DNA of 64,000 nt from contig JBHLKM010000010.1 in NCBI GenBank assembly GCA_048886685.1, forward strand, positions 106,106 through 170,105, in the 5' to 3' direction. Below are positions 9,475 through 60,819 of this stretch, one piece after another. The notes beneath the pieces were generated by a model. It did not search any database. It worked only from the letters and a program-made list of their open reading frames with translations, and was not told the DNA's origin. How positions within the stretch are numbered: position 1 is the stretch's first letter; the number at the start of each line of letters is the position of its first letter. This DNA comes from Candidatus Hodarchaeota archaeon. Its GTDB lineage: Archaea > Asgardarchaeota > Lokiarchaeia > Sigyniarchaeales > SOKP01. Made by a program: the position numbers and the translations under genes.

Positions 9475-9804
9475 TTAATTTGATATTACAATTTTTATTT
9501 TGTTCACAACCTTATTTAAGTAATGTTCGGCTAAGCCAAATTTTACATTTAAACTAAATATTAATATAATAAAATAAGTATCAAGCACATAATCAGAAAA
9601 AATAAATTTCTTATCTCTAAAAGTGAGGAACAATTTTAGAATTGAATTATTATGAATTTTAACGCGGCAATCGACCTCCTTTAAAAACTTTTTCAAATCT
9701 AACTTGTCATAAGAAGAAAAAATTACATGTTCTCTGTCAGTTAGAAGAACTAATCCCTCTATATCGTCTATTGAAGTTAAATCCTTTAAACAGGCAATAA
9801 TTAT
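9475..9804 (-). CDS. Roadblock/LC7 (MglB-like) domain protein; start uncertain (ATA/ATT, or disrupted by an in-frame TAA)
   Basis: Frame stays open upstream of the tracked TTG (9696) to a TAA at 9810-9808, adding IIIACLKDLTSIDDIEGLVLLTDREHVIFSS; C-terminus IILIFSLNVKFGLAEHYLNKVVNKI; overall roadblock helix-beta-beta-helix-beta3-helix pattern. Confidence 0.6.
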   Translation of the reverse strand: MIIACLKDLTSIDDIEGLVLLTDREHVIFSSYDKLDLKKFLKEVDCRVKIHNNSILKLFLTFRDKKFIFSDYVLDTYFIILIFSLNVKFGLAEHYLNKVVNKIKIVISN

Positions 9805-10131
9805 TAATTAATTTTTTCTTAATTTAGATCTCAAATTATTCAATTAATTTTCTATTTAGAGAAATAGATTTCATTAAAATAACGCTTGTGTAAAAGTTAA
9901 TTCCAATATTTCCGATTTGTAAATAAATATTTCTTAGTAATTTTTGGATTAAATGTGAGTTACGTCCCAATTTTTATATATTTTTGATATTGCAAAATCT
10001 GTATTTAGAGCATTGTTATTCATCGTTTAAGATGATCTGACCTTAAAGTTTAAAAATAAGGAAGACGGAATAATATTTAAAATATAAATTTATTTAAAAC
10101 TCTTTAAAATCATTATAGGAGGAATAAAAAA

Positions 10132-10329
10132 ATGGCTAAAAAAGCAGCTGTAGAGGCTCTGTTTGTAAAAAGTAAAGTTCGAGAGTACATCAAAGGAAAA
10201 GGATGCAATACAAGTGGAGACTTGATTGATGGTCCCGCACTTAACAATGCTATTATTGAAATCCTTGACAAAGCTATTGGAAGAGCCAAGGCTAATAATA
10301 GGAAAACAGTTCAAGAAAAAGATTTATAG
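10132..10329 (+). CDS. Small histone-fold protein with truncated alpha3 (HTkC/Bd0055-like)
   Basis: 65 aa, basic; LFVKSKVREYIK helix 1, NTSGD loop, long helix 2 ending RAKANNRKTVQEKDL; SD AGGAGG upstream. Confidence 0.85.
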   Translation: MAKKAAVEALFVKSKVREYIKGKGCNTSGDLIDGPALNNAIIEILDKAIGRAKANNRKTVQEKDL

Positions 10330-10559
10330 ATTTCTTGCTCAAAACCTTAAACTAAAGTTTTTTTTTCATCTTATTTTCTCTCATAAAACTTTATCATTAA
10401 ATCACTAATTTGATGGTGTATTTAGTTTTAAATTATCAAAATTTTATCTTTTAACATAACTACACACACAACCACAATAAATAAAGAATAAAAATTCCTC
10501 CCCAAATCGCCTTATACCTCGGACTCCTTCTAGAGAATCGGAATTATTTATTCTTATTT

Positions 10560-11087
10560 TTACTTTTTCTCTGAACCTTGTTTAATTTCTTTATCAATAA
10601 TAAAAAAACCCACTGAAATTACGCTTTTCAATCTTTGCAGACGATCTTTAAGTGTTTTTACTCGATCAAAAGGTCCTGAGACCGCGATAATTTCTAAACA
10701 TTTACCATATTCCAAATGAACATGCATAGTAGATATGATTATATCAAAAAAGTGATGCTGAATATCAATCTTTAATATTTCATCTGTTTGTTGAATATTA
10801 GCATACATCGTCCCAGAACTATAATCATGCTCATGATCAGCAGTGTGAGAAGAATTATGAGAGTGTTCATGTTGTTTAATATCTGGATGTTCATGAGCCA
10901 TAATAATTGTTATACATCCCACAACGTTTCCAGAACTTATAGAAATATTTTCTTCACTGATCATAAAAGAATGCATTGCTTTCCGAATAGCATCTGATCT
11001 TGACATCCCTAACTTAAGTCTAAACGCCTCAAATAACTTATATAACTTTTCAGGAAGAGAAATTGTAAATCGCTTATATTCCTCCAT
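10560..11087 (-). CDS. nikR: NikR-family ribbon-helix-helix nickel-responsive regulator with a His-rich insertion
   Basis: RFTISLP...SRSDAIR RHH domain; IQHHF...STMHVHL...CLEII metal-binding domain; ATG at 11087 preferred. Confidence 0.88.
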   Translation of the reverse strand: MEEYKRFTISLPEKLYKLFEAFRLKLGMSRSDAIRKAMHSFMISEENISISSGNVVGCITIIMAHEHPDIKQHEHSHNSSHTADHEHDYSSGTMYANIQQTDEILKIDIQHHFFDIIISTMHVHLEYGKCLEIIAVSGPFDRVKTLKDRLQRLKSVISVGFFIIDKEIKQGSEKK

Positions 11088-11128
11088 TTTAAACAATCGT
11101 CATCTTTTTTTAGAAAAAGGATAAAAAT

Positions 11129-58749: not shown

Positions 58750-58841
58750 AATAGATCAACTTTTTTAAATGATTAGATAAAGAAAGAAGAAGAAGGTATT
58801 ATTTTTTATTATTTTTAATGATGTTTATTTCTATTTCTTCA

Positions 58842-59561
58842 TTACTTTAAGATTTTATGCTTCTCAATTATCCATTTATCGACAGTAAATTTTTGTAAAT
58901 CTTTACTCTTCACATCATACTCATTATGGATGGTACTTTTAGGTATCCAGAATTCTTCATCTGATTCTAATGTAATGAGTAACGCTTTAGGACTTTCAAC
59001 CTTGATCCTTGCTTTTATATCAACTCTATCAATGGAGGTGCCATATTCAGTCGTTTCTACAATATGTAGTCCATCTCTAGCTGTAATATGTTCTGCGAAA
59101 ACACTATATTCTGCTTCTTCATCAACAAATTCTTCCTTCTCTCTTGACTCAAAGGTACCACTAGTGGCAAACTCTATTTTCTCGTTCAGTATATGCTCAA
59201 GCATTAAGGTAAGGAAATTTAAATTCGGGAATCGAATTTTCTTCTCGTAATCTCCAATTTTTATCCTTAATACCTGACGACTCTCATCTTCCCAGCCTAC
59301 ATATATCTCTGTTTTACGCTCTTTAAAAACATGATATCCTCTCCAATTTGCATTTCTTCTATGAAGAACTTCTAAGATACAGATGATTTCTTCGATTGAT
59401 AGTTTGACAGTTTTTCCTTCACCTTTACTTGTTTTTTCCCATGTACCATCATCTTTTCTATTTATACAGCTTAAAAAAATATGAGGGACCATCCTTTCAG
59501 GGCTAGTGACAATTAAACTTGATTTTTGGCCATAAAATGTTTTAATATGGAAATCTGCCAA
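58842..59561 (-). CDS. Hypothetical protein; N-terminal PC4/Whirly-like domain plus small C-terminal beta domain
   Basis: Two beta-meander+helix units (RKDDGTWEK...GKTVKLSIEEI; KKIRFPNLNFL); C-terminal ESPKALL...WIPKS...VDKW. Confidence 0.5.
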   Translation of the reverse strand: MADFHIKTFYGQKSSLIVTSPERMVPHIFLSCINRKDDGTWEKTSKGEGKTVKLSIEEIICILEVLHRRNANWRGYHVFKERKTEIYVGWEDESRQVLRIKIGDYEKKIRFPNLNFLTLMLEHILNEKIEFATSGTFESREKEEFVDEEAEYSVFAEHITARDGLHIVETTEYGTSIDRVDIKARIKVESPKALLITLESDEEFWIPKSTIHNEYDVKSKDLQKFTVDKWIIEKHKILK

Positions 59562-59736
59562 TAAAATGCACTTCTATTAAGATTTTGTTGGATAATTTAA
59601 TAAAAACATAGTAATATATTGATTTAAATCTGATTAATTAAAAATAATCCTTTTTATCAAACTTAGTAAATAAGTAAAAGTTTTATTAAATTTGATTTTA
59701 TATAACTGTAAGCAATTCTTTTAGTTGTGAATTCAA

Positions 59737-60495
59737 TTGGAAAAAAAAAATAATGATTCTGTTAAGAAAGAAGAGAAAAGAGCTGTGATTAGTAGTTCAG
59801 GAGATTTAATGGAATATGATGAACATATTAGTATTACTGGATCTGCCAAAATTTCAGGTGGAAAAGTTAAAAAGTCTATAAGAATCTCTGGTTCAGGAGG
59901 AATTAATGGAGATTTAGAATGCGATGGACTTACTTCTTCAGGCACTTTAAAGGGATCAGGGAATTTAATAGCACATGGGGATATAAGCAGTTCAGGTTCA
60001 TTAAATATTGCCGGATCCGTTCGTGGGGAGGGAAGTGCTGATTTTTCCGGTTCAACTCAAATAGGTAATCTTGTAAGGATTCAAGGGGCTTTAGTAGCTT
60101 CAGGTTCATTTAAGGTAGGACATTTTGTAACCGTTGATGAAGGAATTGAGATCTCTGGATCTTCAAGTATAAATGGAAACATTTCTGCTCAAAAAAGTAT
60201 TAAGATTGATGGTTCAACTAAAATTGAAGGTAATGCAGTAGCTGAAAATGTTCTTCTAGGTGCTTCAGAAGAAACTAGAAAAAAACAGCACTATAGAATT
60301 CATGGAAGCATATTAGCTAAAAACATTGTAGATGTTAACAGAACACATGTTGACGGAGATATTAAAGGTAAAGATGTAAGAATTGGTCGTGGAGCAGAAA
60401 TCCTCGGAACTGTGTATTATGTTGATAAAATTGAAGTTGATAAAAAAGCAAAACTAGCTAAAGAACCAACTCAGATCGAGTTACATGAGTTATAA
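59737..60495 (+). CDS. Bactofilin-like (polymer-forming cytoskeletal) beta-helix protein
   Basis: Repeated I-S/D-G-S-x-x-I-x-G-D/N units throughout. Confidence 0.8.
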   Translation: MEKKNNDSVKKEEKRAVISSSGDLMEYDEHISITGSAKISGGKVKKSIRISGSGGINGDLECDGLTSSGTLKGSGNLIAHGDISSSGSLNIAGSVRGEGSADFSGSTQIGNLVRIQGALVASGSFKVGHFVTVDEGIEISGSSSINGNISAQKSIKIDGSTKIEGNAVAENVLLGASEETRKKQHYRIHGSILAKNIVDVNRTHVDGDIKGKDVRIGRGAEILGTVYYVDKIEVDKKAKLAKEPTQIELHEL

Positions 60496-60513
60496 ATTAA
60501 GAAGAAATGCTGA

Positions 60514-60819
60514 TTACATTAACTCAATTTCTACAAGTACAGTTTCAGGTATTTGGATCTTCATAATGAGATGCATACTTCGCTCATTTGCGATAATTTC
60601 AAAAAGTCTTTTATGAATACGCATCTCGAATTTAGCCCAGGTTGATGTTCCTTGCCCACTTGGAGCTTTCATGATAGGTACCCTGAGTCTTTTTGTAGGA
60701 AGTGGGATTGGTCCATTCTTTCGGATACCTTGGGAGCTACATACTGCAGAAACTTGATCGCATACTGATTTAAGTGCGTCTAATTGCGTAGATGATAATC
60801 GTATGCGTGCTTTTTGTAT
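60514..60819 (-). CDS. rps10: 30S ribosomal protein uS10 (absent from ORF track; ATA start)
   Basis: Hand translation: (M)QKARIRLSSTQLDALKSVCDQVSAVCSSQGIRKNGPIPLPTKRLRVPIMKAPSGQGTSTWAKFEMRIHKRLFEIIANERSMHLIMKIQIPETVLVEIELM*; GGTGA SD 7 nt upstream. Confidence 0.96.
   Translation of the reverse strand: MQKARIRLSSTQLDALKSVCDQVSAVCSSQGIRKNGPIPLPTKRLRVPIMKAPSGQGTSTWAKFEMRIHKRLFEIIANERSMHLIMKIQIPETVLVEIELM

Follow-up and report, generated by a model that had tools for sequence, protein, structure and literature searches.

In the Asgard archaeon Candidatus Hodarchaeota archaeon (assembly GCA_048886685.1) and its genus, the codons ATA, ATT and, less often, ATC (collectively ATH) would be genuine, evolutionarily maintained start codons when standing ~6 nucleotides (nt) behind a Shine-Dalgarno (SD) sequence, a reading given a probability of roughly 0.8 from sequence comparison. 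About 60 genes would be affected, i.e., some ~1.5-2% of genes would use ATH and not one of the canonical codons ATG, GTG or TTG. The window, namely the whole 64,000-nt stretch analysed here, is the final 64 kb of contig C10 of this genome, and an earlier note had named four genes in it with apparent ATH starts, i.e., the genes for the ribosomal protein uS10, an inositol monophosphatase (IMPase), "V4R paralog 2" and a "roadblock" protein. All four exist, the locations of uS10 and "roadblock" having been swapped in that note; as for their starts, those of uS10 and paralog 2 proved conserved, the ATA of IMPase is real but private to this genome, and that of "roadblock" is false. Taken over the lineage, a variant of start-codon usage with a testable link to the initiation factor aIF1 is supported, its extension beyond the family of the studied genus is only glimpsed, and this close relative of eukaryotes appears to select its start codons with relaxed fidelity.

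The studied genome, from an uncultured lineage, is a metagenome-assembled genome (MAG) of 4.4 Mb in 47 contigs, with ~30% G+C and an estimated contamination of 8%; in related records, the group is named Promethearchaeota/Promethearchaeia (formerly Lokiarchaeota). For the genome-wide tests, a second and complete genome of the same genus was used (G021, CP070805). The features discussed below are collected in Table 1.

Table 1. Location of the genes and sequence elements considered; coordinates are those of the window unless a contig is given.
Feature	Position	Strand	Basis and remarks
uS10 coding sequence (Ribosomal_S10, PF00338)	60514..60819	-	Start ATA 60819-60817; Pfam match; orthologs
uS10 SD, GGTGA	60827..60831	-	7 nt before ATA; complementary to the 3' end of the 16S rRNA
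TATA-like element TATAAATA, genus consensus ATTTTAAATAA	60841..60848	-	Centred ~26-27 nt upstream of the uS10 ATA
Paralog 2 of the ~150-aa family	55526..55978	-	Start ATC 55978-55976; ortholog alignment
Paralog 2 SD, AGGTGAT	55982..55988	-	Upstream of ATC
Paralog 1 of the same family	54941..55381	-	Canonical ATG start, MSKNRDALKFF; comparison gene
IMPase family gene (PF00459)	57919..58749	-	Conserved N-terminus from ATA 58749-58747
"Roadblock" open reading frame	9475..9807	-	Remnant without its 5' part, i.e., the C-terminal ~108 codons of a two-domain gene of ~269 aa; orthologs
TTG-start example of the earlier note	14218..14880	-	6-nt SD match at spacing 5
aIF1 (SUI1) gene, outside the window	C33:8617-8940 (locus L308)	-	Relatives L309-L337

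ATH codons behind the Shine-Dalgarno sequence

The 3' end of the 16S rRNA reads GGATCACCTCCT (GAUCACCUCC) and is complementary to GGTGA(T), which is therefore taken as the SD. The main test considered every GGTGA-N6-XYZ, sorted by the class of the codon XYZ, and counted those from which an open frame runs on for 100 codons or more. In the studied genome, such a frame follows 33 of 331 ATH codons (10%), 28 of 144 canonical codons (19%) and only 32 of 3191 other sense codons (1%), the difference between ATH and other codons being highly significant (Fisher p=6.5e-18); the corresponding figures in G021 are 19/151, 12/50 and 17/1327 (Fisher p=1e-10). With a spacer of 9 nt, the rate for ATH in the studied genome drops to 3/297. 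When all SD matches of 5 nt or more are admitted, the ratio of ATH to other codons peaks at an aligned spacing of 6 (4.8x in the studied genome and 6.6x in G021) and is ~1 from a spacing of 8 on, a profile that parallels those of ATG and TTG, which peak at aligned spacings of 5-7. Under this wider definition, the excess of ATH amounts to ~60 open reading frames next to 276 canonical SD-led ones in the studied genome, and to ~39 next to 124 in G021.

The preference is for the third position of the codon. ATT (.013) and ATA (.012) come next after ATG, TTG and GTG, followed by ATC (.006), while the near-cognates differing at the first or second position, i.e., CTG, ACG, AAG and AGG, range from.003 to.006 for a background of.003; in the genome-wide codon comparison, no enrichment of other AT-rich triplets was found at SD spacing. 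The recurrence of ATH starts which the earlier note had seen in the window is thus far beyond chance at the scale of the genome, and its suggestion of a systematic, SD-anchored initiation relaxed at the third position finds support in both genomes, where ATH at 6 nt behaves like a start and first- and second-position near-cognates remain near background. Its remark that TTG starts are common also holds, with 35 TTG for 83 ATG after GGTGA at spacings of 4-9; regarding the individual TTG sites it had listed, which were checked for an SD only, one is present at 14880 and 48290 and absent at 56732 and 59561.

Conservation of ATH starts among orthologs

Between the studied genome and G021, 1785 ortholog pairs were compared. 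Since 5' leaders are conserved as well, a screen on alignment alone over-calls, and it was combined with the criteria of an SD and an ATH codon (SD+ATH): among the 139 genes whose alignment seemed to extend upstream by 8 codons or more, as many as 90 have no SD+ATH and resemble conserved leaders. In the studied genome, 67 genes present SD+ATH with no canonical start near the conserved N-terminus, and the aligned codon in G021 is SD+ATH for 35 of them, ATH without SD for 6, canonical for 11 and another codon for 13. Individual cases of exchange between the studied genome and G021 include a GDH-like gene (ATA/ATG), C1+38049 (ATC/ATG) and C5-242319 (ATC/TTG).

Five families keep ATH across ~16-20 species, namely uS10, paralog 2, aIF1, a cytidylyltransferase-like gene and a ThiF-family gene, and in-frame stops lie directly upstream of the conserved ATH starts in all five. 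Read or consensus errors are thereby excluded for these families, so that the G>A or G>C consensus errors which the earlier note had put forward as a possible refutation do not account for the conserved cases, where the same ATH and SD recur from species to species. In the cytidylyltransferase-like gene, a stop directly precedes the ATT in five species, the HxGH motif comes nine codons after the ATT, and other families have ATG at the aligned codon. In the ThiF-family gene, GGTGA-N6-ATT/ATC is found in 16 species and ATG is aligned in another family.

The gene for uS10

The single-copy gene for uS10 offers the clearest example within the window. Its open frame (60514-60843(-), 109 codons) has its first in-frame canonical codon, an ATG, only at codon 57, and its 5' region reads TAA-ATA-CTT-TTT-AGT-GGT-GAG-CAA-AAC-ATA-CAA-AAA-GCA-CGC, where the second ATA is aligned with the methionine of the orthologs (MQKARIRL); the ATA start claimed for this gene is thus borne out. 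The ATA and its SD are kept in all 20 same-genus species retrieved, and in ~11 of the 20 an in-frame TGA or TAA stands two codons before the ATA, leaving no alternative start there. Among 80 species of Promethearchaeota, the aligned codon is ATA in 46, ATT in 1, ATG in 20, TTG in 7 and GTG in 6, and GGTG(A/G) is found 6-7 nt upstream in every ATA or ATT form. In 47 species, the conservation encompasses TGGTGAG at positions -13..-7 as well as the TATA-like consensus further upstream (loci L223-L302, positions -32..-22).

Public gene calls for uS10 in the clade are mostly truncations of 94 aa or 89 aa starting at internal TTG or ATG codons (clusters P0012, P0014, P0043 and P0083 compared with P0008 and P0009; locus L398), which bears out the expectation of the earlier note that genes are missed or truncated in annotations. 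The internal site behind the 94-aa calls is TTA, not TTG, in the studied genome, and one NCBI record (JBHLKI010000087.1) already calls uS10 from ATA at its full 101 aa. Upstream of uS10 lie, in order, a methyltransferase-like gene (62082-62741(-)) and a radical-SAM-like gene (60940-62079(-)), both named by eye; the ATG of the latter (62079) comes directly after the stop of the former (62084-62082), suggesting translational coupling between the two. As neither is tuf, co-translation of uS10 with EF-1alpha was rejected.

Paralog 2, inositol monophosphatase and the "roadblock" frame

The gene called "V4R paralog 2" in the earlier note belongs with paralog 1 to a ~150-aa family (open frames 55526-55999(-) and 54941-55420(-), respectively), for which a Pfam search gave no match, to V4R or otherwise. 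The label is thus without Pfam support, and the ATC start itself stands: it lies 4 nt past the AGGTGAT and is kept across the genus, orthologs reading (G)AGGTGA-TTTT-ATC-GYA-AAG-GAC-GCT, with an in-frame TGA immediately before the GGT of the SD in at least 10 species. Two relatives (L082, L092) have GTG at the aligned position and a third (L096) has TTG, and ATG, ATA or TTG occurs one codon later in three more (L086, L091, L099). Downstream, codon changes within the conserved N-terminal DALKFFQAY are synonymous, and the TTG located five codons after the ATC, inside "DAL" and a likely pick for gene callers, is TTA, CTA or CTT in relatives. The exchange with GTG and TTG, together with the non-conservation of the downstream TTG, points to ATC as a conserved start exchanging with canonical codons. 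An out-of-frame ATG-TCT-AAA-AGG-TGA (55997-55983(-)) encodes "MSK" as in paralog 1 and had raised the possibility of a frameshift, which was rejected, the motif being absent in all relatives; this mimic overlaps the SD of paralog 2 and was judged a coincidence.

For the IMPase gene, the open frame (57919-58755(-)) has its first ATG at codon 42, i.e., 39 codons past the ATA, and the PF00459 match begins ~30 codons ahead of that ATG. The ATA and the homology preceding the first ATG are thus real, as the earlier note had it, but the codon is not conserved, the aligned position being ATG in 17 and TTG in 1 of 18 same-genus orthologs, and the SD is weak (GTTGATC, 58760-58754, ending 6 nt ahead of the ATA when counted in the GGTGA register). 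The ATA would then be a G>A change private to the studied genome, more likely a tolerated mutation than an error; a recent change from ATG to ATA may be tolerable under a relaxed start-codon system.

The "roadblock" frame owes its lack of a start to a deletion. In 22 of the 23 other genomes of the genus, the ortholog occupies an open frame of 267-300 aa (in most cases ~269), and the match in the 23rd sits at a contig end; in the studied genome, residue 162 is where homology abruptly sets in. The 161 N-terminal aa are missing from the locus and, paralogs of 28% identity aside, from the rest of the genome. Relative to the closest relative (G003, L057), ~725 nt are missing at window positions 9805-9935, removing the first ~160 codons and the upstream region. 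The ATA or ATT start proposed for this gene therefore does not hold; a Pfam search of the fragment gave no match.

aIF1 and the initiator tRNA

The earlier note had suggested inspecting aIF1 and the initiator tRNA for substitutions. The initiator tRNA turns out to be ordinary and loop 1 of aIF1 shows no obvious lesion. The gene for aIF1, for its part, has ATT as its own start codon: throughout the 19 genus species read, its 5' end is ..GGTTGTGA-TAA-GAG-AGT-ATT-AAA-GAC-GAC-GAC-ATT-TGT, leading into the ICPxC zinc knuckle, and no ATG, GTG or TTG is found ahead of this zinc knuckle. The ATT closely follows an in-frame stop (TAA-GAG-AGT-ATT), and the equivalent codon in other families of the order is ATA (g5), TTG (g2, g9) or GTG (g11). 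Loss of or damage to aIF1 as the cause of relaxed initiation was rejected, the gene being present and its loop 1 essentially conserved.

The initiator tRNA (C30:10443-10546) exhibits a CAU anticodon, an A1:U72 pair, GGG/CCC in the anticodon stem and a 25-nt intron. Between 30 and 33 tRNA genes were detected with ARAGORN and Rfam, most of them with introns; an altered initiator tRNA was rejected, since the only initiator-type tRNA found in this incomplete inventory has CAU. Among the ARAGORN predictions are also a tRNA-SeC (tca) and, with an intron, a tRNA "Pyl" (cta).

Proposed mechanism and alternative explanations

In the mechanism proposed, the SD (GGTGA and its neighbours) would pair with the 3' end of the 16S rRNA and place the ATH codon in the P site at ~6 nt, where the initiator Met-tRNAi would pair with AUH through a third-position mismatch. 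A strong and well-spaced SD duplex would compensate for this mismatch, which the proofreading by aIF1 would tolerate, and the weak AUH codons may tune expression down. Because its gene starts at ATT in every genus species read, aIF1 probably limits its own synthesis; by such self-limitation, stringency throughout the cell would be set low enough for AUH starts to function, in the manner of bacterial IF3 and the AUU of infC. A further and rather doubtful step would be a start-codon "stringency regulon," in which the AUU-started aIF1 autoregulates and ~2% of genes, including uS10, track aIF1 activity via SD-N6-AUH.

Other explanations deserve consideration. That the ATH "starts" reflect errors of sequencing or consensus, or belong to pseudogenes, is a natural concern for a 47-contig MAG with some contamination, all the more so as the ATA of IMPase is unique to this genome when relatives have ATG and the "roadblock" gene is truly broken; yet the same ATH and SD occur in 16-47 independently assembled species in five families, uS10 and aIF1 are essential and single-copy, and the coding sequence downstream is conserved at the protein level with synonymous changes, all of which makes this explanation scarcely credible. 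Translation could also begin at the next canonical codon downstream, the stretch separating it from the ATH being a conserved leader or regulatory region, as the leader-like extensions of the ortholog screen and the 94-aa uS10 calls from an internal TTG in many species would have it. This is very improbable, since the uS10 of the studied genome has TTA at that site and no canonical codon before codon 57, and since such starts would remove the zinc knuckle of aIF1 and the HxGH of the cytidylyltransferase-like protein and would cut into the Pfam cores of both IMPase and ThiF; besides, other lineages have ATG, GTG or TTG at the exact aligned codon, and codon variation ahead of the next canonical start is synonymous.

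Initiation at ATH might lastly proceed without SD-anchored near-cognate pairing, either on leaderless transcripts starting at ATH or with an initiator-like tRNA reading AUH. The TATA-like box of uS10 fits a transcript starting at the ATA, ~26-27 nt being the canonical distance from TATA to transcription start in archaea, and the incomplete tRNA detection leaves room for a second initiator. On the other hand, the enrichment of ATH varies with distance from the SD just as that of ATG and TTG does, the sole initiator-type tRNA found has CAU, and the SD+ATH gene set exhibits no shared positional TATA signal, the positional TATA profile giving no usable peak for separating leaderless from SD-led SD+ATH genes; this possibility is thus considered unlikely. 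SD-anchored initiation at ATH nevertheless has several points to contend with. The TATA-like box of uS10 could put the transcript start at or near the ATA and leave the SD outside the mRNA, and loop 1 of aIF1 (TRKWGR) is close to that of M. jannaschii (KRRFGK), with no obvious lesion. As regards the statistic, its specificity rests on internal controls, i.e., other codons and other spacings, in two genomes of the same genus; ATH is mildly enriched at spacing 3 too, partly from AT-rich spacers, and, in the spacing-5 class, the in-frame GTG within GGTGA could itself be the true start. Examples of this last class are C14+24723 (RFC small subunit) and C2-64134 (Usp-like), the RFC ortholog of G021 having an ATG nearby instead.

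Consequences for annotation and evolution

Gene callers restricted to ATG, GTG and TTG would truncate or drop ~1.5-2% of genes in such Asgard genomes, affecting marker-gene completeness, the N-termini used for structure prediction or expression, and searches for eukaryotic signature proteins. The start-selection core made up of aIF1, aIF1A and aIF2 is common to archaea and eukaryotes. As such, a lineage that tolerates third-position mismatches and seems to make aIF1 itself from AUU may provide a tractable system for studying the setting of stringency and its evolution toward the eukaryotic state. A published tubulin has already needed a hand-corrected ATT start (PMC13394414).

Comparison with known systems

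The literature searched yielded no systematic description of ATH starts and just one remark, on the "rare ATT start codon" of a single gene, AtubA, from a MAG of the Kariarchaeaceae (Heimdallarchaeia) (PMC13394414). The likeness lies in an Asgard conserved N-terminus needing an ATT at a plausible distance from a ribosome binding site, and the difference in that AtubA is one gene, called rare, whereas ATH usage is here quantified genome-wide and conserved across the genus. As near-cognate starts, the ATH codons are listed in NCBI table 11 and are frequent in mitochondria and in certain Mollicutes (tables 2, 4, 5). These share with the present genus the same three codons and the third-position mismatch to a CAU initiator but have reduced organellar or parasite genomes, while the genome considered here is that of a free-living archaeon of 4.4 Mb with a eukaryote-like set of factors, aIF1 included. 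Compared with the known pre-initiation complex assisted by aIF1 and the SD, factor and complex are the same; aIF1 rejects such codons there, whereas they are apparently accepted here, though the loop-1 residues are largely conserved.

The closest parallel may be infC, which encodes IF3 in bacteria, starts with AUU behind an SD and is autoregulated. In both cases, the gene of a factor proofreading the start codon itself begins with AUU/ATT behind an SD, as seen for aIF1 in 19 species. The two differ in that aIF1/SUI1 is unrelated to IF3, that autoregulation would here be deduced from the start codon, and that ATH would concern ~1.5-2% of genes, whereas bacteria are known to use AUU as the start of no more than a handful. 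In eukaryotes, eIF1 autoregulates through the poor context of its AUG, according to Ivanov et al. (2010) as cited in PMC6237735. Being the ortholog of aIF1, it offers the likeness of a factor whose own weak initiation site makes its level set stringency; the weakness resides there in the Kozak context on a scanned mRNA and here in a non-AUG codon behind an SD. Were the tentative stringency regulon true, it would represent an archaeal counterpart of the control by infC/IF3 and by eIF1, in the prokaryotes closest to eukaryotes.

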